Of a stretch of DNA of 64,000 nucleotides, positions 28,876 through 45,942 are shown piece by piece. A program made the position numbers and the translations under genes. Origin of the DNA: an uncultured Candidatus Saccharibacteria bacterium (lineage in GTDB: Bacteria; Patescibacteriota; Minisyncoccia; Phycocordibacterales; PALSA-1337); NCBI GenBank assembly GCA_964561875.1, contig CAZLQL010000002.1, forward strand, positions 23,613 to 87,612. Reading direction: 5' to 3'. The number at the start of each line of letters is the position of its first letter. Positions within the stretch are counted from its first letter, which is position 1. The notes below the pieces were generated by a model. It had not been told where the DNA came from and ran no database searches. It was given only the letters and a program-made list of their open reading frames with translations.

Positions 28876-28920
28876 AAGGTGTGGTTAAATAAGAAATAAA
28901 GTGTATTGAATTTTGAGTAT

Positions 28921-28958
28921 AAAAAATAACCCCACAGAACGTTTGTGTTCCGTGGGGC
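28921..28958 (-). terminator. rho-independent terminator for the minus-strand GC-rich operon
   Basis: Hairpin ccccacagaac/gttccgtgggg with a T tract on the minus strand. Confidence 0.6.
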
Positions 28959-28980
28959 CGAGCTAGCAAATTAATTTTTA

Positions 28981-29445
28981 CTATCCTAATATGTGACGTT
29001 CGATATCGAGCCAGCTTTCGACTCGAGTGGTGCTTGAGAGCTCCGCTTGCCATTTTTCAGCATCTTCCTGATTCGCTTGGAAAAGTAATCGATGGGTAAT
29101 AAAAGGCATATGACTCATGACTTCCGGTCGGTCGTCAATGAAATGAGTGATTCCAAGACGATGACAGATCGGAGCTTTGTCACGACGCTCTGCGCAGAAA
29201 TGGAGGTGGTCTGTGGCGATTCCGACAGACTGGAGAAATCGAGTCGAGCGTAGCCAAGCCTCAGCTCTGACTTGTTGTTCAGGAGTTACTCGTGAGATGA
29301 TATGCACCCTCTCACCGAATTTCTCTGATACAAGCCTTCGAATGACTCGATCTGCATCTGGGAGTAGAACTTGCATACCGTTTACACGGTGCACAATGGT
29401 TCTTCCCAGATCGATACCAAGAGCATTTTCAGTTTTTATTTCCAT
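28981..29445 (-). CDS. HAD-superfamily-like small protein (degenerate motif I), GC-rich
   Basis: GIDLGRTIV ... HFIDDRPE resembles HAD motifs I and IV, but the second Asp is replaced. Overlaps the upstream gene by 17 bp. Confidence 0.4.
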   Translation of the reverse strand: MEIKTENALGIDLGRTIVHRVNGMQVLLPDADRVIRRLVSEKFGERVHIISRVTPEQQVRAEAWLRSTRFLQSVGIATDHLHFCAERRDKAPICHRLGITHFIDDRPEVMSHMPFITHRLLFQANQEDAEKWQAELSSTTRVESWLDIERHILG

Positions 29446-30313
29446 ACTTTTTTATCCAAGTTCTGATTTCTGGCAGGTGATGCAGGTGGGTGACAAGTGT
29501 GCAGTAAGGATCGTGAGTTATTTTTCGAATGAGTACAGGGTCAAATTCCTCGATCGTTTCTCCTACGTGCAGGAAGCACAATCCAAGTTGTTTCGATAGA
29601 CCGAGCGGGGCTATCAGGTCCCAAGGTGTCTCGAAGTGTGGTCTAACAATCACTGCTCCAACTTCACCCTTCCAGACCTTGGCAAATACCGCTCCGATAC
29701 TTCCAGCAGCTACCTCAGCGTTCTTGAAGAGACCGCTATCAGTTAGGTCTACCATTCTCTGGACAATCTCTGGGTATGCAGTAGGTAGATCCTTGAGAAC
29801 AACATATTGTTTCTTGAGTGGTCGCTTTATATCCGGCTTGAGTAAAAGTCTCTTACCGAAACGAAGTCGAGTCCCCACATCTCTAGTTCCTTTAGCGAAA
29901 CCATAGATTTCTTCGGTATTGATATCTCCAATGTAAGTTGCAATCACTTTGCCATCACAGACGAGGCCCAACATAGTGGTAACTCCTTGCGAGGTATTGA
30001 GTGCGTAGGATTTGGTTCCATCGACCGGGTCGACAGTAAACCAGATATCGTGTTTGCTGTCAGTGCAAGGAATATCCAATTCCTTTTCCTCAGCAATGAT
30101 ACCGAAAGTAGGGAAGCGTTTTCGAAGTTCCCGGATATACATCTGTTGAGCTTTGAGATCACCACTGGTGACCACATCCTCTTTGATGCCATCGTAGGCC
30201 CTCTTGTCGTGGATAACTGTTTTGTGCGATTCGGTACGGATGATAGCGATCGCTTTTCTGACGATGGCGATCATATCATTCCGAATTCGTCTCATATTTG
30301 GTATATTTTTCAT
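29429..30313 (-). CDS. inositol monophosphatase / CysQ family phosphatase, GC-rich
   Basis: WFTVDPVDGTKSY (DPxDGT) plus EE and WD motifs; 294 aa. Confidence 0.75.
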   Translation of the reverse strand: MKNIPNMRRIRNDMIAIVRKAIAIIRTESHKTVIHDKRAYDGIKEDVVTSGDLKAQQMYIRELRKRFPTFGIIAEEKELDIPCTDSKHDIWFTVDPVDGTKSYALNTSQGVTTMLGLVCDGKVIATYIGDINTEEIYGFAKGTRDVGTRLRFGKRLLLKPDIKRPLKKQYVVLKDLPTAYPEIVQRMVDLTDSGLFKNAEVAAGSIGAVFAKVWKGEVGAVIVRPHFETPWDLIAPLGLSKQLGLCFLHVGETIEEFDPVLIRKITHDPYCTLVTHLHHLPEIRTWIKKYGNKN

Positions 30314-30470
30314 TCAATGTCCTTTCTGTTTCTACTATATGTTACTATCTTTAAAATTGCTGTGTTTGTATAAAATCTTGTATAGGTTTACACTTATTTG
30401 TATAAGTTTATTGAAAAATATAGGTAAATATGGTAGATTAGTTGTATAAAATAATTACAACTTATTATAT

Positions 30471-31190
30471 ATGTCAAAACACATATTAGAAAAAATTGGT
30501 TTTCTGGGTCATGAAAAAGAAATCTATCTTGCTCTTTTAGGTGTTGGTTCGTCTTCAGTTTCTGAATTAGTTCGTAAAACAGGTATTCATCGTCCTACGG
30601 TTTACAAAACACTAGCACTTCTTATTGATAAGGGTCTTGTACGCATCATGCCAGTTGGGAAATATAAAAAATATGTTGCTGAGTCGCCAGAACATTTAGA
30701 AACAATTTTTAAAGAACTTGAAGCCGATTTTACTTCAGAGATATTTGATCTAAAGGATATGTATGAAAGTAGAGATAAAAAGCCACGAATTACTTTTGTA
30801 GAAGGGTCAAAGGGTATTACTCAAGTCTTTTCTGATGTGGTTCATCGTCTCAAAAAAGGTGAAATGTACTTACGATATTCTTCACAAAAGGAATTGGATG
30901 TAAAAACATTTGTACCAAAGGACTATCGAGAGGTGAGAGATCGAAAAGGACTTGAACGCCTTATCATTACCAATGAACCGACCAAGAAACGTCATAGTAA
31001 AAAATTAGGTAGGGAAATCAAAGTTATTCCTCCTGATTTTGATTTGTTTGAATACAATATTTCACAGATTATTTATGCTGATAGAGTAGCTTTTATTGAT
31101 TACAATACAAAAACGTCAATCACCATAGAAAATCCTATTTTTGCTGAATTTCAAAGAAAGATTTTTAAGTTGTTATTCAAGAAGCTTTAA
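30471..31190 (+). CDS. TrmB-like HTH transcriptional regulator
   Basis: N-terminal EKEIYLALLGVGSSSVSELVRKTGIHRPTVYKTLALLIDKGLV is winged-helix TrmB-like. Confidence 0.6.
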   Translation: MSKHILEKIGFLGHEKEIYLALLGVGSSSVSELVRKTGIHRPTVYKTLALLIDKGLVRIMPVGKYKKYVAESPEHLETIFKELEADFTSEIFDLKDMYESRDKKPRITFVEGSKGITQVFSDVVHRLKKGEMYLRYSSQKELDVKTFVPKDYREVRDRKGLERLIITNEPTKKRHSKKLGREIKVIPPDFDLFEYNISQIIYADRVAFIDYNTKTSITIENPIFAEFQRKIFKLLFKKL

Positions 31191-31195
31191 AATGA

Positions 31196-31221
31196 GTCAA
31201 AACAAAACAAATCTTGCGAGT
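31196..31221. repeat. hairpin repeat family, copy 1 (gtcaaaacaaaac...tcttgcgagt...tgtttg)
   Basis: Shares an exact 14-nt block and an exact 10-nt block with 32648-32690. Forms a stem-loop with a TTGCGAG loop. Confidence 0.55.
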
Positions 31222-31243
31222 TGTTTGTTCATAGAGGTAAGTA
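31222..31243. repeat. 22-bp direct repeat, right copy
   Basis: Exact copy of 28846-28867. In the giant gene's frame it would read ...IEVSNVRWL*. Confidence 0.85.
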
Positions 31244-31326
31244 ATGTGAGGTGGTTATAAAGTAATAACATTACAAATTATTTATCGATAAATTGATAAT
31301 AATTTATTATGTGATAAACTTTTTTT

Positions 31327-32019
31327 ATGTTTGATAATCCTACTTCTATTAGATATTTAGACGATAATACTATAAACCAGAGTACTAATAATGACTCGAT
31401 AAGAGCAAAATCCGCAGTTTTTGCAAGAAAAAGAAAAGTTGTATCGTATTATTTCGGTACACCTTTGCAGTCTGCTACTCACATAGCAGATGCTAATTTG
31501 GATCAATTTATAACAATACAAGGTGATAAAATTAATTATTTACAACCACCACGTCCAATAGTAAAAGGAGGTCTGAATGTTTCTTTTGGCCTAGGAGGGA
31601 ATTCACCACGTCATGCATGGAAGATTCCTTCAGTAATTTACGTTACCAAGAAATACATACTTATAACCCCATCAGAAGAACAGCTAAATGCTTCAAAGTT
31701 TATATACGGTATTAGTATTGCTATGACTTTCTTATTCCTACTATTAACAATACCTTTCACGTTTATTTTCGGTCCTATTTTCCTCATATTTTCTCTTTTA
31801 TGTATATCGTTACCTATCATCAAATCCTACCTCTTCTTTTTTAAGAAAAGTTACATATCTGTAGCCCCTATTGAAGTAATAAAAAATATAAATGTAGATG
31901 AAAAGACGATTACTGTTGATGGATTTTTTAATACTGGAATTCCATCATTCTTAAAATACAAAGTATCTGCTGAATTATACGTAGGAGACAATATTTCTTT
32001 TTTTAGAGACAATATTTAA
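31327..32019 (+). CDS. hypothetical membrane protein
   Basis: Two TM helices; AT-rich and native-like. Confidence 0.4.
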   Translation: MFDNPTSIRYLDDNTINQSTNNDSIRAKSAVFARKRKVVSYYFGTPLQSATHIADANLDQFITIQGDKINYLQPPRPIVKGGLNVSFGLGGNSPRHAWKIPSVIYVTKKYILITPSEEQLNASKFIYGISIAMTFLFLLLTIPFTFIFGPIFLIFSLLCISLPIIKSYLFFFKKSYISVAPIEVIKNINVDEKTITVDGFFNTGIPSFLKYKVSAELYVGDNISFFRDNI

Positions 32020-32202
32020 ATTAATAGCTTCCGGTACAGTAGCTATTGACATATAGATTTTACTATGATATATCCATAAAGTAAGGTAAGTTCTTTGAAA
32101 GGTGTGTAGTTGAGTACGGAATAAGGGAAATAATTGACTTGCTGGCAATCGCTATGCGGATTAAATTCCTTTACTGTACTCAATACAAGAGAGAAACACA
32201 TC

Positions 32203-32436
32203 ATGAAAAAATTCGAAAAAAAATTGAAGGACGCCCTTAAGAAAATTGAGGGCAAGTCAGTCAGTCTTAGTGGCTCGAGCAACTGCATTCGCATTGTGCT
32301 CAAAGGTGGCAAAGAATACTGGGGAACGGTGAAAGAAGTCTGCAGTGACTCGTTCACGGTCTCGGTCTCGTATACGGGTGGCGGTCGTGAAAACATCGTC
32401 GTGCGTATGAGGGAAGTTGCTTCTTTCAGCGAGTGA
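32203..32436 (+). CDS. small GC-rich hypothetical protein (77 aa)
   Basis: MKKFEKKLKD... reads as a coherent ORF. GC is much higher than the flanks. It is followed by a hairpin terminator. The antisense ORF 32043-32462 is judged spurious. Confidence 0.4.
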   Translation: MKKFEKKLKDALKKIEGKSVSLSGSSNCIRIVLKGGKEYWGTVKEVCSDSFTVSVSYTGGGRENIVVRMREVASFSE

Positions 32437-32460
32437 ACCCTAAAATCCAAAATCCTTAAC

Positions 32461-32495
32461 ACACCGCATGGTTAGCCCAGCGGTGTTTACTTTTG
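32461..32495 (+). terminator. hairpin terminator, second copy of the hairpin family seen at 13866-13892
   Basis: acaccgcatggttagcccagcggtgt followed by ttacttttgc. Confidence 0.5.
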
Positions 32496-32647
32496 CTTAA
32501 ATATTCAAGTCTTTTGATATAATTTACTTTTATAGAATAGTTTTAAATAATGGCGAGAAAAACGTTGTAGTGGAAGACACTCTGGTGAATATCAAGGGTG
32601 CTTATACAGACATTTTACGACTTTCAACTCCCCAAATAGCTTCATCA

Positions 32648-32690
32648 GTCAAAACAAAACCACTCTTGCGAGTGGTCTGTTTTGTCTGTG
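32648..32690. repeat. hairpin repeat family, copy 2
   Basis: gtcaaaacaaaaccactcttgcgagtggtctgttttg forms a ~15-bp stem; related to 31196-31221. Confidence 0.55.
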
Positions 32691-32941
32691 GACACATACC
32701 GAAATACATCGAACCGCCTAAAAGACTATCTTTCTCGGTTCTGGCACTACTATCAAACTAGCCCTGATTTGCAAAAAGTCCTTGCAACAGCATGATAATC
32801 CAGTCCTGAAGTGGTCACAATAAGGGTATTGAATTCTTGTATTGCATTTCTGTACTGGCGCGTAATTTTTTTAAAAACAGATTATCCTGTAATTACATAC
32901 AAAAACGGTGAGTGATATTTTTATTGTTCACTTTATATTAG

Positions 32942-32970
32942 TTGACATAAAACTTTGCTGGATTTAGACT
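32942..32970 (+). promoter_or_regulatory. sigma70-like promoter TTGACA-N17-TAGACT upstream of the GHKL ATPase gene
   Basis: ttgacataaaactttgctggatttagact. A 10-bp palindrome tcgatatcga (33007-33016) and a hairpin (33054-33075) lie in the 5' leader. Confidence 0.4.
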
Positions 32971-33086
32971 ATTAGAGTCCTTGGTGAAGTATTGGTATCG
33001 CTAGTCGATATCGATCACAGACACTAATACAAATCTCTAATTGTATTTTATCTGCAAAACACCTCGCCAAGGGTGTTTATTAGTTT

Positions 33087-34631
33087 TTGGTATCTAGTTG
33101 GATATCGAAAATAGCAAAAATTATTATGTTTATAAAAAATCACCCTAACGCAGCAAAACTCCTCTCCTCGTTGCGTAATACGGGATATGACAGCTATGCT
33201 GCTGTTGAGGACATTATTGATAATTCTATCGACGCTGATGCTCGAAGAATTAAGATCGGTATTAGTATTGTCGGAAAAGAGCCCCGCGTTACAATTGCTG
33301 ACGATGGATCAGGAATGACGAAAGAAATTCTTGATGAGGCTTTGAAGTTGGGATCAGAAACAGAAAAAGATGAGATGTCTGATCTTGGTAAATATGGCAT
33401 GGGTCTTTGTACTGCCTCAATCTCGATGGCGAAAAGACTTAAGGTTATTACTCGAAAAGTAGATGGTGGATATTGGTCAAGTGTCCAAGATCTCGATGAA
33501 GTCGTGAAAGCAAACGATTTTATTAAGGAGTTGCAAGAATCAGACAATGATGACATTGCTCTCTTTAAAGAATTGGTAGAGAGCGATCATGGAACCCTTG
33601 TTATCTTGAGCAAAATTGATCGCCTGTCAAACACAAATGTTTCTATTTTTGCGACTACTCTTTCAAAAGAAATCGGTCGTATATACAGAAAATTCATTGC
33701 AGCCGGTATTGAGTTCAGAGTAAATGATAAGAAGGTTGAAGGCATTGATCCCCTAATGCTTGATGTTGAAGGTACACAGGTTTATTCTGACGAAGAATAT
33801 GAGGTGCCATCACACAAAGGAAAAGAAAAGGTTAATGTGCGAGTTGTGTTTCTGCCAAGTGTAAATGAACAGCTTGAAAAGGAGTATAAAATGAATATCT
33901 CATCTCAAGGGTTCTATATACTAAGAAATAATCGTGAGATCGCTAATGGAGTTACACTTGATGTTTTTAAGAAGCACAACGATCTTAATAGATTACGTAT
34001 CGAGCTTTCTTTCACTTCAAATCTCGATAATGAGATGGGTGTTCGTTTCACAAAAGATGGCGTATCTCCTAATCAGGCCATAAGCGATTTCCTTAAACAA
34101 GAAATCGGTGGCCAGATTGAATCAATTAGAAAAACCGTTGTAAAAAGTCGTGTGACCGACAAATCAAAAGAAATAAACCACGAGGAGTCTGCTGCAGTTA
34201 TTGCGAAGAAATCTAAATTACTCATTACTCCAGACGCAATAATTGAACGTCGATCACCAAAAATAAATAAAAATAACAAGAAAGAAAAAACGGAAAAAGA
34301 CGAAACTCGTGATCGAGTACCAAAGGAGACAAGGATTTCTTCAAGTGGCTTAGGGGCAAGGTTCGAAACCCTTTCTATGGGAAGAGAAGGTGCTCTATAT
34401 GATTGTTATCAGGAAGGTAAGGTTGTTGTGATTCAATGGAATGTAGATCACCCATTTTACGAGAAAATCGTACTCGCGAATAAAGATCGAAAAGATTTGA
34501 CGGCGGGCATAGATTTCTTGATATATGCACTTGCTTCAGCGGAGTTGAAAACAACAAATGATGATAATGTAAAAATTATTAGCCAGATAAAAACAATAAT
34601 GTCCGGAAATCTAAAATCATTACTATCTTAA
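33087..34631 (+). CDS. GHKL-superfamily (HATPase_c_3-like) ATPase, 514 aa
   Basis: N-box EDIIDNSIDA, G1 DDGSGM and G2 GKYGMGL motifs. The C-terminal 300 aa are of unknown function. Confidence 0.75.
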   Translation: MVSSWISKIAKIIMFIKNHPNAAKLLSSLRNTGYDSYAAVEDIIDNSIDADARRIKIGISIVGKEPRVTIADDGSGMTKEILDEALKLGSETEKDEMSDLGKYGMGLCTASISMAKRLKVITRKVDGGYWSSVQDLDEVVKANDFIKELQESDNDDIALFKELVESDHGTLVILSKIDRLSNTNVSIFATTLSKEIGRIYRKFIAAGIEFRVNDKKVEGIDPLMLDVEGTQVYSDEEYEVPSHKGKEKVNVRVVFLPSVNEQLEKEYKMNISSQGFYILRNNREIANGVTLDVFKKHNDLNRLRIELSFTSNLDNEMGVRFTKDGVSPNQAISDFLKQEIGGQIESIRKTVVKSRVTDKSKEINHEESAAVIAKKSKLLITPDAIIERRSPKINKNNKKEKTEKDETRDRVPKETRISSSGLGARFETLSMGREGALYDCYQEGKVVVIQWNVDHPFYEKIVLANKDRKDLTAGIDFLIYALASAELKTTNDDNVKIISQIKTIMSGNLKSLLS

Positions 34632-34689
34632 TAGTCGGTGTGAATTAGAGATTAAAAGACCGCTAGTTATCTAGTGGTTTTTTTAATAC

Positions 34690-35211
34690 ATGATTGAGTT
34701 TGTTGAAACGTCTCATGTTGTGTATAATATACATAACATGGCTACACAATCTAAAAATTTGTATAAGGCCGAAGACGTAGCAAAATATTTTATCTATCTA
34801 GGATCACAACAGGTTGTCGGCGACAACAAAGAAAGAGAGGGAGTAACAAATCTTAAACTCCAGAAGATACTTTATCTTGCTCAAGCGTATTTTCTTGCAA
34901 AAATTGGCAAGCCTCTTTTTGTTGATCCTATCGAAGCATGGGAGTTCGGTCCAGTTGTCCCAAATGTTTACCACAAGTTGAAGAGATATGGTAGTAACCC
35001 TATTATCGTCGAAAAAGATGAAAGCTCTGTGTTACCAGAAGATAAAGAAATTTTAGGTAAAGTTTGGGAAGCTTTTGGTGGCTATTCAGCTAGTCGTCTG
35101 GTTGATATTACTCACGCGCATACGCCTTGGAAAGAGGCTTATAATTCTTCGAATAAAGAAATTAGTAACAAAGCTATCGGTGAATATTATACGCCTTTGC
35201 TAAATAAATAA
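34690..35211 (+). CDS. Panacea (DUF4065, SocA-like) antitoxin-domain protein
   Basis: KLQKILYLAQAYFLAKIGKPLF...AWEFGPVVPNVY is the hallmark of this domain. Confidence 0.7.
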   Translation: MIEFVETSHVVYNIHNMATQSKNLYKAEDVAKYFIYLGSQQVVGDNKEREGVTNLKLQKILYLAQAYFLAKIGKPLFVDPIEAWEFGPVVPNVYHKLKRYGSNPIIVEKDESSVLPEDKEILGKVWEAFGGYSASRLVDITHAHTPWKEAYNSSNKEISNKAIGEYYTPLLNK

Positions 35212-35235
35212 TCCCTTGTATCGGTAAATACGGCC

Positions 35236-35637
35236 ATGGAAGAGATGATTACGCCTAGCAAGATAGATCTTAGATACGCTGAACACAAAGTCTTGTTTTT
35301 AATCTGCGACTGTTCTCTGGATAAACATTATTCATTTTGGAAACTCACGAGAGAACAAGCTGAAAAGTTTATTAAAAAACTTAGATACGTTGAGCAATTA
35401 ACGTGGTCTCAATTTTCAAATTTACCAAGAGATAGTACTGGTCCAACAGTAGAAAAGCAGAATACCGATAGTTTTAATATGATACATAATCAAAATACAT
35501 CAGCGGAAAAAATTGCTGAACAGTATTATTTTCATTTTCGAATTGAACCGAGAGGACTTTTTAGGGTTTTTGGATATCAGAAGAAACAATACTTTTGCAT
35601 AACCCATATTGATTACGAAGGAAGAATTCATCATTAA
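35236..35637 (+). CDS. small protein, candidate RelE/ParE-like toxin
   Basis: The C-terminus FRVFGYQKKQYFCITHIDYEGRIHH resembles the RelE/ParE C-terminal beta strands. It sits directly downstream of the Panacea-domain gene. Confidence 0.3.
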   Translation: MEEMITPSKIDLRYAEHKVLFLICDCSLDKHYSFWKLTREQAEKFIKKLRYVEQLTWSQFSNLPRDSTGPTVEKQNTDSFNMIHNQNTSAEKIAEQYYFHFRIEPRGLFRVFGYQKKQYFCITHIDYEGRIHH

Positions 35638-35711
35638 AAAATACACTGCGAATTCATATTTACAGAGAGATTAGAATATGTAGATAAAGAAGGTTGTCGA
35701 AGTAATAAAAA

Positions 35712-35738
35712 ACACCAGCAAAAGCTGGTATTTTTTTA
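35712..35738 (+). terminator. rho-independent terminator (accagcaaaagctggt plus T7)
   Basis: Perfect 6-bp stem, 4-nt loop and a T tract after the three-gene module. Confidence 0.7.
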
Positions 35739-35871
35739 TTACTGTGGAGATAGTCACGCAAAGTTGGAACCAACTCTATTCTTGGTTTTTTGAATCGTCT
35801 GGGCGATTATAGAAAGTAGGGAACATTGCGTATAAAAGAGAACTCCACAATAAGCAGAGCCTCTTGCGGAG

Positions 35872-36336
35872 TTATTGACCAAGATTTTTGATTCGTTCCA
35901 AGGTTTCGCGTCGTTCAATAGCTTGTCTCGTGATTTTCTGAACTACGTAAACGCATTTCCTCAGGTCAGCTTCACCCTCAGGGGTCGAACAAAGCCTCCG
36001 ATGAAGAACGTCTTTGGGAATTAGAAACGTTATATATTCCGCTAGGTCAGAAAGTGTTGCGTCTGATAAATTACGCAGCTCTTCCACCGTAAACCCTACA
36101 TCGCAGAATTCTTGCGAATCTTTTGCGACTTGAACCAGAAGCTCTTGATAGAGCTCCATTAGGTTTTCCTTCTGCCATGTTTCTAACTGATCCCAATCAT
36201 CAATATTGTCTCGATAGAGAGCAGTGACATCAGGAAGGAGGGTTGGAATGGACGCGATCTTTTTGAGCCCTATAAGCCAAGCCCTAACTTCTTCTTTGGT
36301 TTGCATGTTTAAAACCTTTGGTTGGATTTTTACCAA
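35872..36336 (-). CDS. GC-rich hypothetical protein adjacent to the ssrA 3' end
   Basis: 154-aa ORF with much higher GC than the genome background. Confidence 0.4.
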   Translation of the reverse strand: MVKIQPKVLNMQTKEEVRAWLIGLKKIASIPTLLPDVTALYRDNIDDWDQLETWQKENLMELYQELLVQVAKDSQEFCDVGFTVEELRNLSDATLSDLAEYITFLIPKDVLHRRLCSTPEGEADLRKCVYVVQKITRQAIERRETLERIKNLGQ

Positions 36337-36389
36337 AAAAAGCTGCTATTAAATATGATATCATATCTAGTAATAAATGTCAAATCTGT

Positions 36390-36787
36390 GGAGATGCTGG
36401 GAGTTGAACCCAGGTGCAGATGAAATCTTATACTGATTCTACATTGTATAGAATGCTTTTGCGTCTATCTATCGACAGACTATTTAACCTTTATACTTTA
36501 AAGCAAACAAAATATATAAAAGCGATTCCCAAGAGATTTGAACTATAAACAGGGAAGAGAATATAGTTCTAGTTTAATTTATATCAATCCACCACTTCTC
36601 TAAACAAAGGAGTGACGACCGTCGCTCGAGCCTAAGCTAAAGCGAAAGCAAGATTTGTACTTCCAAAAGGAGATACAACTGCCTTTGCAACTGATTTTGC
36701 AGTTACGATTTCCGTCAGATTAAAGAGTTAACGGTGCTCTACAATGCACAATATGAAGTACCTCAACTGTCGAGGCCTTTCATCCCC
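36390..36787 (-). ncRNA. ssrA: tmRNA (transfer-messenger RNA)
   Basis: On the minus strand the 5' end reads GGGGATGAAAGGCCTCGAC and the 3' end reads CTGGGTTCAACTCCCAGCATCTCCA. The acceptor stem GGGGATG/CATCTCC pairs. The internal tag ORF ends ...GSTNLAFALA*. It lies next to smpB on the same strand. Confidence 0.7.
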
Positions 36788-39294: not shown

Positions 39295-39368
39295 GCGCGT
39301 GTAGCTCAGTTGGTTAGAGCATCGAGCTTATACCTCGAGGGTCCCTGGTTCGAGTCCAGGCACGCGCA
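39295..39368 (+). tRNA. tRNA-Ile with anticodon UAU
   Basis: Cloverleaf with acceptor GCGCGTG/CACGCGC, anticodon stem TCGAG/CTCGA, loop CTTATAC and T-loop TTCGAGT. Confidence 0.85.
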
Positions 39369-39395
39369 CCGAGCGTAGTATATAAAAAAGAAAAA

Positions 39396-43641: not shown

Positions 43642-43731
43642 GGAACCGTGGTGGAGTGGTTTAACATACCTCTTTGCTAAAGAGGCGAGCCCTTTAAAGG
43701 CTCCGAGGGTTCGAATCCCTCCGGTTCCGCA
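43642..43731 (+). tRNA. tRNA-Ser (anticodon GCU), class II with a long variable arm
   Basis: Acceptor GGAACCG/CGGTTCC, anticodon loop TTGCTAA, variable arm GAGCC-TTTAAA-GGCTC and T-arm GAGGG-TTCGAAT-CCCTC. Confidence 0.85.
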
Positions 43732-43962
43732 ATGATCCACAAGGAAGCCTAAATGGCTTCCGAGTGGATTATCATTTCGTAAATCGAAGTGATGAGAAAG
43801 CCGGACTGAGCGAAGGCGAAGGAGGCGGGTGAGCTTGGGTGAGGGACCCAAGCGCAAGACCTTTTGAGATTGTAATCAATCCAAAAGGTATACTGGCCCT
43901 GTAAGGGTCGCGGGCGAGGCTAGCAAGCCGAGACCTGTGACCGAATCCCTCCGGTTCCGCCA
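43732..43962 (+). repeat. structured GC-rich repeat element, copy A (231 nt), starting immediately at the tRNA-Ser 3' end and ending with a 24-nt tRNA-Ser-3'-end-like sequence
   Basis: The first ~80 nt match 45790-45870 at 79 of 81 positions. It shares the 3' block gtcgcgggcgaggctagcaagccgagacctgtgaccgaatccct. It has a ~75-nt extra segment with a perfect hairpin (cttgggt-gagg-gacccaag). It ends in gaccgaatccctccggttccgcca. Confidence 0.7.
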
Positions 43963-44001
43963 TTAGCAGGTAGCACGACATGCTATCTGAAATAGGTAAA
44001 C

Positions 44002-44026
44002 AAAAAGCACCGATCGGTGCTTTTTG
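44002..44026. terminator. bidirectional terminator hairpin (aaaaagcaccgatcggtgcttttt)
   Basis: Perfect palindrome GCACCGATCGGTGC flanked by A5 and T5. Confidence 0.7.
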
Positions 44027-44035
44027 TTTAGTTAA

Positions 44036-44641
44036 TTAAGATATGTCAATACCGATACTTTTAATATATTTAACAAAAGAATCACTATTAGTGTAGATAA
44101 AACCCTGCATACCAAGAGCAATAGCGCTATCCACATTCACTTTACTATCATCAATAAAAAGAGATTCTCCTGGCTGCGAATTTATTTTTTTGAGTGTATG
44201 TTCGTAGATATCTTTGTAAGGTTTTACCATACCCACCTCTGATGAGATAACTATTTCATCAAACAAGTCTTTAAACTCAGGATAAGTTGGGTATATTTTT
44301 CTCTCAAAAAATGAAGCGTTAGCATTGGAAAGGAGGACTGTTTTAAATCCTTTATTTTTTAGTGATTGAATTATTTTTACTAATCCGTTATCAATACCCA
44401 AATAGGAATCAATCTGTTCCCTCATTTCTTCCTTGGTCAAATTAACTCCCTCATACTTCAAGAAATAATCTACAATATCATTCTCTGACAATTTACCTAG
44501 ATCAAACTTTTCAAAAACATTTTTTAAATTTTCATCAACCAATCCTTTTTTGAGTCGATTATCTCTGTACCACCCATTTAAAACAGGGTCACAAATAACC
44601 CCAAAGCAGTCAAATATAATAGTGTTTATTTGAGACTCCAT
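44036..44641 (-). CDS. HAD-superfamily hydrolase
   Basis: IIFDCFGVI motif I-like, LLSNANASF and FIDDSKVNVDSA motifs. Confidence 0.7.
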   Translation of the reverse strand: MESQINTIIFDCFGVICDPVLNGWYRDNRLKKGLVDENLKNVFEKFDLGKLSENDIVDYFLKYEGVNLTKEEMREQIDSYLGIDNGLVKIIQSLKNKGFKTVLLSNANASFFERKIYPTYPEFKDLFDEIVISSEVGMVKPYKDIYEHTLKKINSQPGESLFIDDSKVNVDSAIALGMQGFIYTNSDSFVKYIKSIGIDIS

Positions 44642-44644
44642 AAA

Positions 44645-45343
44645 CTATTTACTTGGTCGCTTAATTATCAAATCAACTTCGGGACTTTCTGATTTTAGAT
44701 TCGTAATTACTTTTTCTACAACAGTTTCAACTTCCATGTAATCCTTGAGATCATCAGGATATTTTTCCTTATAAATATCTGTTTGCATACCACCAGGGAA
44801 TACTCCGTAAACTTTGATATCCGTATCTTGAATTTCCTTGCGGATAGATTCAGTCAAACCTTTGATCGCAAATTTAGACGAAGCATAAGCAGATATGCCC
44901 GGCTTACCATCAAGTCCAGCTGTTGAGTTTATATTTATAATTACACCATTTCCTTGGGTTTTCATTTGAGCCAAAGCCACCTGACAACCGTAGAAATAAC
45001 CGAAGAAGTTTATATCAAATAAATTATGTAGTTTCTTAATATCTACTTCTTCAACTAAACTTGGAGCAATTTGGATCCCAGCATTATTTATCCAACAATC
45101 TAATTTGTCGTATTTCTTAATGACATAATCTGCCAGCTTTTTAATATCTTCAGGTGAAGTTACGTCAGCGAGAAAATGATCTACAGAGAGTTCTTTTGCT
45201 GTAGATTCTAAGTGTTCAATTTCATGACTAGAAATGACAACTTGTGCGTTTTCAGCTTTAAATGCCTTAGCGAGAGATTTACCAAATCCCTGACTTCCAC
45301 CTGTTATTACGATAACTTTGTCTTGGATCTTCATAAAACCCAT
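44645..45343 (-). CDS. short-chain dehydrogenase/reductase (SDR) family oxidoreductase
   Basis: VITGGSQGFGKS, NNAG, YASSKFAIKG. Confidence 0.85.
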   Translation of the reverse strand: MGFMKIQDKVIVITGGSQGFGKSLAKAFKAENAQVVISSHEIEHLESTAKELSVDHFLADVTSPEDIKKLADYVIKKYDKLDCWINNAGIQIAPSLVEEVDIKKLHNLFDINFFGYFYGCQVALAQMKTQGNGVIININSTAGLDGKPGISAYASSKFAIKGLTESIRKEIQDTDIKVYGVFPGGMQTDIYKEKYPDDLKDYMEVETVVEKVITNLKSESPEVDLIIKRPSK

Positions 45344-45359
45344 TTTATCATTTTTGACC

Positions 45360-45701
45360 CTATTTCTCCAGAGTAATCTTCTTCTGCGCCAGAAAGATTC
45401 TACTCTTCAAACACCCAAGCAATTCTCGTTTCTTTTCGTTTGAACCCTCTTTCAGTACATACTTTGCATATCCTCGAATATCTACACTCGGTACGGCAAC
45501 TTTTTCCTTGGTTCCCAGAAAGAATTTCTGCATCTTTGAAAACTGCTCAAGATCAGCTTTGATCTTTTCCTTAACCTCGATTTCATTAAGGGTGATGTTT
45601 TCAACTAACTCCTCAAACTGTTTCAATATATCTTTCTCTTCCGTATATAAAGACTTTAATGACTGGACGATTACACAAATAATGCAGTAATTGGAGCGCA
45701 C
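45360..45701 (-). CDS. hypothetical protein, possibly a truncated gene remnant
   Basis: Lys/Glu-rich 113-aa ORF with an unclear start, next to repeat element copy B. Confidence 0.3.
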   Translation of the reverse strand: MRSNYCIICVIVQSLKSLYTEEKDILKQFEELVENITLNEIEVKEKIKADLEQFSKMQKFFLGTKEKVAVPSVDIRGYAKYVLKEGSNEKKRELLGCLKSRIFLAQKKITLEK

Positions 45702-45789
45702 GAGATGCGTCGATTAAGATTCTGAAAAAGTGCTAAAATGACCTTACAGGGCTTGTCGGCATTTAGTTCTAACACGACGCTCTCCGCAA

Positions 45790-45942
45790 TGATCCACAAG
45801 GAAGCCTAAATGGCTTCCGAGTGGATTATCATTTCGTAAATCGAAGTGATGAGAAAGTCGGAGCGAGCGAAGGCGAGCGAGACGGGGTCGCGGGCGAGGC
45901 TAGCAAGCCGAGACCTGTGACCGAATCCCTAAGGTCTCCGCA
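45790..45942 (+). repeat. structured GC-rich repeat element, copy B (153 nt)
   Basis: Same 5' nested-hairpin block atgatccacaaggaagcctaaatggcttccgagtggattatcat and the same 3' block. Ends gaccgaatccctaaggtctccgca. Also preceded by tccgca. Confidence 0.7.

Follow-up and report, generated by a model that had tools for sequence, protein, structure and literature searches.

Small folded elements at the 3' ends of tRNA and tmRNA genes in Patescibacteria

What is the GC-rich, folded sequence that directly follows a serine tRNA gene in an uncultured Candidatus Saccharibacteria bacterium, and why does it occur a second time about 2 kb downstream, beyond three genes? The stretch of DNA analysed here, referred to as the window, is 64,000 nucleotides (nt) long (NCBI GenBank assembly GCA_964561875.1, contig CAZLQL010000002.1, positions 23,613 to 87,612 of the forward strand), and positions are those of the window unless another locus is named. 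A preliminary description, made from the letters of this stretch, regarded the two copies, A and B, as a tRNA-Ser-targeting element, which could be a miniature integrative element, a pair of cassette-capture sites or a non-coding RNA (ncRNA). We find that the two copies belong to a multi-copy, protein-less family of small, GC-rich, folded elements of Patescibacteria (Candidate Phyla Radiation, CPR), located at the 3' ends of tRNA and transfer-messenger RNA (tmRNA) genes. The family is apparently undescribed, and literature searches found no description of this element. As regards the three explanations, comparison of the sequences appears to show both mobility and a strand-specific, covarying fold.

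The organisation of the locus is given in Table 1. The tRNA-Ser(GCT) gene has no encoded CCA (the gene end reads …CCGCA/ATG, the slash marking the boundary), and its last 18 nt (43713-43730) are the proximal copy of a direct repeat. This sequence, GAATCCCTCCGGTTCCGC, occurs exactly twice in the window. The second occurrence (43943-43960) is the end of copy A, where it forms the first 18 nt of the tail GAATCCCTCCGGTTCCGCCA, so that copy A does end in a duplicate of the tRNA-Ser 3' end, as had been claimed, and the duplicate is exact. In a pattern search its chance expectation in the window is 0, even with three mismatches. Copies A and B align over two blocks, which had been recognised but taken as 80 and 45 nt long; the 5' block (43726-43829 and 45783-45886) covers 104 nt at 94%, and the 3' block (43905-43955 and 45885-45935) covers 51 nt at 96%. 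The shared unit begins within the last 5-6 nt of tRNA-Ser (TCCGCA), and copy B is indeed preceded by the same six letters and ends in a tRNA-3'-like sequence, the diverged tail GAATCCCTAAGGTCTCCGCA. The extra hairpin module of copy A is also real, at 77 rather than 75 nt. Both copies are GC-rich (52-56%, against about 32% in the surroundings and the genome) and highly structured, with nested hairpins predicted and fold z-scores against shuffles of -5.9 for copy B and -8.2 for copy A. The nested inverted repeats at the 5' side, which first drew attention, are predicted to fold, but they form a locus-specific spacer, which in copy A takes the slot occupied by terminator hairpins at other loci; the conserved part of the element is a core of two hairpins at the 3' side.

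Table 1. Coordinates of the tRNA-Ser locus and of its two element copies in the window, with the divergent tmRNA-associated copy from locus L035 in the last line
Feature	Position	Strand	Basis and remarks
tRNA-Ser(GCT)	43642-43730 (one caller 43729)	+	ARAGORN; Rfam tRNA, 56.7 bits
Copy A, whole	43731-43962	+	
Copy A spacer	43731-43793	+	Nested hairpin 1 (~43733-43775) and hairpin 2 (43771-43793); folds, locus comparison
Copy A joint GAGAAA and hairpin P2	43794-43827	+	P2 at 43800-43826, GCC-GGA-stem-GAAG-stem-GA-GGC; covariance-model match, P2 covariation
Optional two-hairpin insert module, 77 nt	43828-43904	+	Of the window pair only in copy A; alignment
Copy A hairpin P3, GGTCGCGGGCGAGGCTAGCAAGCCGAGACCTGTGACC	43906-43942	+	Two conserved G·U pairs; last C is tRNA position 56
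Copy A tail, GAATCCCTCCGGTTCCGCCA	43943-43962	+	tRNA-Ser from nt 57 to the 3' end, with encoded CCA, then terminator
Terminator-like bidirectional palindrome, AAAAAGCACCGATCGGTGCTTTTT	~44002-44029		After copy A tail and after HAD gene; read in sequence
HAD-family hydrolase	44036-44641	-	Pfam PF00702, 3.9e-18
Short-chain dehydrogenase/reductase (SDR)	44645-45343	-	Pfam PF00106, 3.6e-52
Large serine recombinase C-terminal remnant, 113 aa, not an intact gene	45360-45701	-	Homologs carry PF13408/PF07508; split resolvase ORFs in syntenic L027
TCCGCA, 6-nt fragment of the tRNA 3' terminus	45783-45788	+	Precedes copy B
Copy B, whole	45789-45942	+	Recurrence 2.06 kb downstream of copy A
Copy B spacer (hairpins 1 and 2)	45789-45850	+	94-100% identical to copy A spacer
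Copy B core: joint GAGAAA, P2, GG, P3	45851-45922	+	P2 at 45857-45883, P3 at 45886-45922; covariance model, 101.5 bits
Copy B tail, GAATCCCTAAGGTCTCCGCA	45923-45942	+	Diverged tRNA-Ser 3' end
Divergent family member directly after tmRNA	L035 14162-14338		Also in L036

The family was collected with a 20-mer from the 3' hairpin of the core (P3) as search key. It is present at 13 loci in metagenome-assembled genomes (MAGs) of Patescibacteria, labelled Paceibacteria, Taylorbacteria and 'Saccharibacteria', and at a further 13 in metagenomes, and many of the matches lie at the ends of contigs, where a dispersed repeat would be expected. With a covariance model for the core, 37 matches with E < 0.001 were obtained in the window and the 20-mer loci, and six more in loci fetched later; the family amounts to about 40 copies in CPR MAGs and metagenomes. 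One MAG alone contains at least five (two in L002, and others in L005, L008 and L012), and a full scan of the window with the model, run without filters, returned copies A and B and no third. When the loci are read in register, nearly every copy is found directly 3' of a tRNA gene and on the same strand, and the proposed check, whether other copies abut tRNA 3' ends, has a positive outcome. The label 'tRNA-Ser-targeting' has to be given up, because the hosts comprise ten tRNA species (Ser-GCT, Ser-GGA, Ala-TGC, Leu-TAA, Leu-TAG, Trp, Glu-TTC, Glu-CTC, Arg-CCT and Asn-GTT) as well as tmRNA, and each copy carries the end of its own tRNA.

The relation between element and host gene is precise. 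Past the conserved …CCTGTGACC at the end of P3, each copy runs on as the 3' end of its own upstream tRNA, starting from C56/G57 in the T-loop. The element closes with 17-30 nt that repeat the end of the tRNA or tmRNA gene before it at about 20 independent loci, and the attL/attR-like pattern proposed for the window thus holds well beyond it. The tail equals the upstream tRNA end at Ser-GCT, Ser-GGA, Ala, Leu-TAA, Leu-TAG, Trp, Glu-TTC and Glu-CTC, and in the Arg-CCT and Asn-GTT copies it still matches over the first 8-10 nt only. In L020 the repeat extends 11 nt past the tRNA end, which indicates that the duplication arose in DNA and not from a mature tRNA. In the divergent copy behind tmRNA (L035/L036), as read in L035, a terminator comes first, then the tmRNA end as an inverted copy of 16 nt, P2 and P3 hairpins in variant form, the tmRNA end again as a direct copy of 19 nt, and another terminator. 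Copies behind tRNA-Trp are kept in several related genomes (L005, L009, L019 and L020). The same 66-nt core, with 0-1 nt difference, is found behind Leu, Ala, Trp and Ser tRNAs with target-specific arms that are entirely different. Either gene conversion homogenises the cores, or the arms are re-templated from the target; this observation fits no reading of the element cleanly.

Some loci depart from this arrangement. In L021 (~1800-1930, element-oriented) the slot of the tRNA is taken by the 3' end of an IS3-family transposase gene and an inverted repeat, which abut the element spacer. L016 (1911-2260) and L024 (1040-1340), again element-oriented, hold composite arrays of two or three variant units with different versions of P2 and P3 and with the 77-nt module placed elsewhere; these arrays lie behind a conserved AT-rich region and a T-arm-like fragment, and no intact tRNA was detected there. 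In L013/L026 the tail is cut off after 10 nt, and what remains of a core comes next, together with another partial tail; in L007 a GC-rich hairpin module of 37 nt lies inside a tail.

From 5' to 3' an element consists of a variable spacer, a linker, a purine joint, hairpin P2, GG, hairpin P3 and the tail. The spacer is 25 nt long and AT-rich at some loci and a long hairpin at others, and in many it is a typical intrinsic terminator. The joint is GAGAAAG or CGAAAG. P2 has the pattern GNC-GGA-stem-GAAG-stem-GA-GNC, and P3 the pattern GGTCGCGGG…TAGCAA…CCTGTGACC, in which two G·U pairs are conserved and tandem G·A is present. At least six different P2 stem sequences are found and all of them pair, as illustrated by the window itself, where GTC…GAC of copy B compensates for GCC…GGC of copy A. 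Seven pairs are altered on both sides, and the covariation score is 0.206, compared with 0.066 for shuffles (none of 500 reaches the observed value) and at most 0.031 with slid partners. The near-invariance of P3 arises in part because P3 served as the search key. The optional 77-nt module also occurs in both L002 copies and, at a different position, in L016, and it too shows compensatory changes among loci (ATTG/CAAT versus CTCG/CGAG).

The linker is in most copies an imperfect reverse complement of the tail, and it changes with the tRNA. The matching segments are GGAATC/GATTCC in several loci, GAGTC/GACTC in L010 and GGAGAGATTC/GAATCTCTCC in L006, and the pairing reaches 15-16 pairs in the Asn and tmRNA copies. 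Linker-tail duplexes have a calculated mean of -14.0 kcal/mol for cognate and -10.2 kcal/mol for non-cognate combinations, and none of 20,000 permutations reaches the observed mean. In their minimum-free-energy fold most copies form a three-way junction, which 10-16 linker-tail pairs close. P3 stacks directly on this closing helix, and the junction therefore branches exactly where identity with the tRNA starts. In copy A, CCGAGTGGATT (43760-43770) is a potential 5' arm complementary to the tail, which is sequestered in hairpin 1. Some likeness to a tRNA minihelix is suggested by the models, in that most copies have a predicted acceptor/T-stem-like helix and CCA is present in some tails. In sequence the linker corresponds to the 3' strand of the tRNA in reverse complement and not to its 5' strand: in the tRNA-Ala copy it has an A opposite U70 where the tRNA has G3, so that the arm is an inverted copy of the 3' strand. 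Departures from a perfect reverse complement are mostly C-to-T and keep G·U pairing, for example in L003.

In each of 19 copies the strand of the tRNA gene is predicted to fold more stably than its complement, the mean difference being 11.3 kcal/mol. The conserved core can be described as a folded nucleic acid specific to one strand, and most likely an RNA made in the direction of the tRNA. High GC content, covarying hairpins, G·U pairs, strict strand bias and a target-specific closing helix together point to a functional single-stranded structure, most probably RNA, which would be either a cis-acting recombination structure or the product of the element.

Evidence for gain and loss of the element comes from comparison with close relatives of the window, in which recG, tRNA-Ser, comF and pilM are syntenic and the interval after tRNA-Ser differs in each. 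In the window the interval contains an element, the HAD and SDR genes with a recombinase stump, a second element and a gene for a 606-aa protein. L035, with 95% RecG identity, has one element, which combines the P2 type of copy A with the diverged tail of copy B, followed by an open reading frame (ORF) of 208 aa. L034, with 92% RecG identity, has none: its homology to the window ends with the final tRNA base, after which comes an Mrr-type island. The tmRNA gene, in turn, is occupied by an element in L035 and empty in the window. Both empty sites (tRNA-Ser of L034, tmRNA of the window) have flanks that are not collinear. Remnants of the tmRNA end or the tRNA-Ser end were found neither elsewhere in the window nor at the far end of the L034 island. 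A decayed full tRNA upstream of copy B and of other distal copies was considered on the strength of a suggestive alignment and rejected, as its local-alignment scores do not exceed those of shuffles (z -0.4 to 1.0), and just 6-9 nt of tRNA terminus are present there. As a separate observation, L035 (6225-6892, also in L036) has an insertion of 717 nt placed precisely between the recG upstream region and tRNA-Ser, which contains an ORF of 183 aa for a LAGLIDADG homing endonuclease (PF14528, 2e-12) and is absent in the window and L034.

The details of the ends suggest which copy of the tRNA end is the original. The distal tail often has CCA and a locus-specific flank or terminator; at the proximal end CCA is missing and element sequence comes next. 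The window shows the same arrangement, its tail reading …CCGCCA before a terminator. In L008 and L012, from one MAG, identical elements including the spacer stand behind tRNA-Glu-TTC and tRNA-Glu-CTC, genes with common 3' ends, and their tails run into different native flanks with CCA or CC. The likely reading of this pattern is that the native end was displaced to the distal position and that the element brought the proximal end. Within the window, copy B, which has the drifted tail that also closes the single copy of L035, is probably the older of the two units. Copy A, at the live tRNA, has an 18-nt repeat that is still perfect and is followed by CCA and a terminator, and is probably the younger. 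The spacers of A and B are near-identical and yet completely different from that of L035, which implies recent copying or conversion between A and B.

The element brackets cargo, as had been proposed, and it does so at four loci (the window, L010, L011 and L014). The cargo consists of Ldh_2 and a UvrD-like helicase in L010, a NucS-like protein in L011 and a KAP NTPase in L014; L014 and L023 differ by a 4.7-kb block with tails at its bounds. In the window, the block between the tail of A and the spacer of B occupies the same cargo slot as in the other two-copy loci. Two of its minus-strand genes are the HAD hydrolase and SDR oxidoreductase that had been recognised, and the third, taken for a small ORF, is a remnant of a recombinase gene. 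In another assembly this cargo forms an isolated contig of 1.8 kb, because the assembly broke at both element copies. The palindromic terminator reported next to copy A is visible, but it was not flagged by a consensus terminator scan, since its loop has just 2 nt; weak sub-threshold matches to small RNA models that contain a terminator overlap it.

The recombinase remnant deserves a separate comment. It is the sole trace of a recombinase, a dead serine-recombinase fragment, and it is not linked to the element at other loci. A tie between the element and large serine recombinases was accordingly rejected: four loci with homologs of the 45360-45701 ORF have no element and no tRNA. Quite apart from the element, CPR metagenomes contain more than 60 short ORFs, of 60-198 aa, with homology to the C-terminal part of large serine recombinases, that is, to its zinc-ribbon/coiled-coil region (compare this ORF and L027-L029), and they often adjoin separate ORFs with a resolvase domain. 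Either recombinase genes that are split or decaying are widespread, or these ORFs are fragments that have been conserved.

On the basis of these observations we hypothesise, with a probability of about 0.5, that the element is a non-autonomous integrative module of tRNA and tmRNA genes, which has its folded core at the crossover and is moved by an enzyme encoded elsewhere. The unit would consist of a replacement tRNA 3' end, the spacer (often a terminator), the imperfect reverse complement of the tRNA 3' end, the GAAAG joint, P2 and P3, with the displaced native end, here called the tail, next to it. Insertion would occur by site-specific, Campbell-type recombination, with the crossover at T-loop position 56/57, that is, where P3 ends and the three-way junction branches. 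A crossover at this position would leave the tRNA intact and push its old 3' end downstream. Catalysis would be provided by an enzyme acting in trans. Repeated insertion at one tRNA, together with recombination between copies, would make and remodel small islands, and in the window two such units would now flank HAD, SDR and a dead serine-recombinase gene. The duplication of the target end at a fixed T-loop position, the use of tmRNA as a target, the presence/absence polymorphism, the multi-copy spread and the cargo arrays all point to insertion by recombination at tRNA and tmRNA 3' ends.

A number of results weigh against this hypothesis. The cognate tyrosine or serine recombinase that one might expect was not found near any copy: Pfam searches of the cargo and of targeted window ORFs flanking the tRNA-Ser and tmRNA loci detected neither an integrase nor a transposase or reverse transcriptase, and the surroundings of all copies are free of such genes over about 5 kb. 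Nor does any neighbouring protein recur, since an all-against-all BLAST of the ORFs of 27 loci (±5 kb) gave syntenic repeats only and none across non-syntenic loci. No phage or viral contig was found to carry the element, whether with an exact core 20-mer, an exact 20-mer from the spacer hairpin of the window, two degenerate core patterns or BLAST against GenBank phages. No excised or circular form was seen, although a search for circular junctions was not possible. Most copies measure just 130-230 bp, which is an unusual length for a substrate of recombination. Neither a GC content of 65% nor hairpins that covary and contain G·U pairs are required of a double-stranded attachment (att) site, and these point instead to a functional RNA. 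The occurrence of one core (0-1 nt difference) at four tRNAs with different arms is not explained by the simple idea that each lineage has its own attP, unless gene conversion is invoked. Folded with DNA parameters the element is only marginally more stable than shuffles (z = -2.5), and in copies A and B of the window the closing helix is not part of the minimum-free-energy fold, which is a weakness of the model. The core as an RNA has difficulties of its own: no promoter is predicted upstream of A or B, and strong terminators often stand between tRNA and core.

Known RNA families offer no alternative identity. That the element could not be placed in such a family agrees with an Rfam 15 scan of the region, in which only the tRNA reaches its gathering score and the cores are overlapped by one chance match of 13.8 bits, even at E <= 10. 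A hammerhead-like GAUGAG…GAAA motif was noticed by reading and discarded, being in the wrong order and absent from many copies. Ribozymes and introns were likewise set aside, as there is no Rfam match to either and the element follows a complete tRNA; the published tRNA introns of CPR bacteria are group I introns in the anticodon loop (PMC13011429) and are different from the element.

The same evidence may be read in other ways. The main rival, which is possible though we would not expect it to prove correct, is that the element is a resident family of structured ncRNA genes, transcribed with or after the tRNA and not primarily mobile. Its closing helix would imitate the acceptor/T-stem duplex, and RNase P, 3' trimming and CCA addition would cut out a stable RNA of 110-190 nt, a mimic of the tRNA end that might act as decoy, sponge or cofactor; the duplicated tRNA end would then reflect the origin of the gene, and copy number would shift by ordinary duplication and deletion between repeats. 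This would explain elements of 65% GC in a genome of 32% GC, with covariation in P2, conserved G·U pairs, tandem G·A motifs and a fold that is strand-specific, always in the tRNA direction, and far better as RNA (z -6 to -8) than as DNA. It would also explain the retention of G·U pairing where the linker has changed, the optional modules placed at junctions, as in other structured RNAs, and the retained tRNA-Trp copies in related genomes. It does not sit well with the terminators that separate tRNA and element at many loci, with the lack of a predicted promoter upstream of A and B, nor with the close relatives that lack the element at the same tRNA, from which it must be dispensable. Exact mimicry is not maintained either, given that the tail of copy B and the distal tail of L035 have drifted from the resident tRNA while the core is intact. 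Near-identical cores across tRNAs and genomes, with the assembly breaks, fit spread better than vertical descent, and no function can be named that suits ten tRNAs plus tmRNA. A simpler account still, chance similarity or a one-off local tandem duplication at tRNA-Ser, could appeal to the fact that the window has just two copies, close together; it has practically no chance of being right, in view of about 40 copies at 11 target genes in many genomes, the zero expectation of the 18-nt repeat and a fold backed by covariation, and the many further copies exclude a simple local duplication.

Two further readings retain mobility and assign the fold a different role. In one, which we consider unlikely, the element is a folded recombination site in single-stranded DNA, comparable to integron attC or the attP of CTX phage. 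Linker and tail would pair in single-stranded DNA, for example after natural transformation, and imitate the double-stranded end of a tRNA gene; P2 and P3 would mark the branch, a host tyrosine recombinase would exchange one strand at 56/57, and units would stack as cassettes. The imperfect, target-derived inverted repeats around a structured centre, the folding of just one strand, the coincidence of identity boundary and junction, and the cassette-like arrays with cargo between a tail and the next linker would all be accounted for; an element-encoded integrase would not be expected if a host enzyme is used, and competence and type IV pilus genes adjoin the tRNA-Ser locus. Against this, the DNA fold is weak and two conserved G·T mismatches would destabilise P3, reading of the sequence gave no attC-type core sites GTTRRRY (the T-loop has GTTCGAA), no integron integrase was found, the arrays hold two or three units at most, and the centre of the element is conserved in sequence, which attC centres are not. 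The other, for which we see very little likelihood, is an RNA-guided module resembling bridge RNA or omega RNA, with the core as scaffold and with linker and tail as guides that read both strands of the tRNA-gene end for a recombinase or nuclease encoded elsewhere. A conserved scaffold between segments matching both target strands would fit, and one scaffold with different target-specific arms would indeed be expected of a programmable system, but the two supposed guides are mutually complementary and predicted to pair with each other, no IS110-type, TnpB or IscB gene adjoins any copy, and Rfam gave no match to known guide-RNA scaffolds.

A more far-reaching reading can also be formulated: a new kind of site-specific recombination module defined by nucleic acid, in which a three-way-junction scaffold (RNA or folded single-stranded DNA) with a direct and an inverted copy of the target could be re-aimed to many tRNA genes and moved by a trans-acting or host enzyme without an integrase of its own. 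We regard this as doubtful. If true, the ultra-small genomes of CPR bacteria would have a counterpart to integron cassettes or bridge-RNA systems that does without a protein.

Among known systems, the closest are the tRNA and tmRNA islands with tyrosine integrases of the T-loop class (P4-like islands, tycheposons). In both, the direct repeat is the tRNA 3' end from the T-loop onwards, tmRNA serves as a target and the tRNA remains intact; as insertions succeed one another, older units move outward and partial tRNAs are left behind, the cargo is variable and of accessory or defence type, and the locus is hypervariable among relatives. Island building by repeated integration at tRNA genes, with partial tRNAs as its traces, is an established mechanism (tycheposon paper). 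The direct repeat of the present family, 17-30 nt from C56/G57 at about 20 loci and including a tmRNA case, is what is seen in such islands. Islands of this type have their integrase inside the element, usually next to one att site, unlike the present family, in which no integrase lies in or near about 40 copies and most units, of 130-230 bp, have no ORF. The family further differs in its GC-rich, covarying three-way junction, its inverted target-derived arm and its use of one core for many tRNAs. Integration at tRNA 3' ends with accretion of cargo is thus a kind of event that is already known, and the novelty lies in a structured core without a protein, in an inverted arm derived from the target and in the wide range of targets.

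Other comparisons are less close. The cis-mobilisable elements (CIMEs) of streptococci, and similar derivatives resembling miniature inverted-repeat transposable elements (MITEs), are also small, lack recombination genes, have att-like flanks and occur in tandem with cargo units. CIMEs are deletion derivatives of a recognisable parent integrative and conjugative element. No parent was found for the present element, whose core is structured and conserved across lineages and which has many targets. The fixed terminal inverted repeats and constant-length duplication of a MITE are not present, as the arms vary with the tRNA and the duplication ranges from 17 to 30 nt. Integron attC and CTX-phage attP resemble the element in the imperfect inverted repeats folded from one strand, a stem that imitates the partner site, a recombinase outside the cassette and cassette-like stacking. 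The fold here is strand-specific and two-unit arrays exist, but it is much better as RNA than with DNA parameters, the centre is conserved, IntI is absent and the element is not at dif; instead of the attC core sites RYYYAAC…GTTRRRY, the junction reads GACC/GAWTCC and the T-loop GTTCGAA, with a non-purine fourth base. The tyrT-distal repeats of E. coli end in a tRNA 3' end and yield RtT RNA by tRNA processing. Like the element, they are units downstream of a tRNA that each end in a copy of the tRNA 3' end; unlike it, RtT (Rfam RtT family) is found in one enterobacterial operon, with no core common across tRNAs and no cargo, and the element has no Rfam match. The bridge RNA of IS110 and the omega RNA of IS605 share with it a structured scaffold and target-matching segments. 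They differ in that the element has no recombinase or nuclease gene, its target segments pair together, and it shows neither a two-loop bridge nor a 3' single-stranded guide.

The genomes of CPR bacteria are tiny and have few recognised mobile elements, and their acquisition of accessory genes is poorly understood. Through this family, tRNA and tmRNA genes stand out as places where genes are actively gained and lost, with no recombinase in sight. Should the fold prove to be an RNA, it would be a widespread new class of structured RNA with built-in mimicry of the tRNA end; if it is a recombination site, it would be a compact, re-targetable integration module. The element also breaks assemblies and orphans cargo contigs, so that knowing it would improve the binning and annotation of CPR genomes.

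Some other features of the window were noted in passing. An accessory island (28900-36390, minus strand) lies 3' of the tmRNA (36388-36787) and encodes a MORC-like HATPase_c_3 protein (33126-34631) and a SocA/Panacea antitoxin-domain protein (34690-35211); a second copy of the tmRNA end is present nowhere else in the window. Just upstream of fusA, positions 14-415 form a non-coding tandem repeat with units of 71 nt (4.5-6 copies, about 66% matches) and a super-period of 213 nt, which is not a CRISPR array because the 'spacers' repeat too. Finally, a tRNA-Ile(TAT) gene (39295-39370) is found at the same position in L034-L037, followed by a plain terminator and no element; such a tRNA is an uncommon way for bacteria to read AUA.

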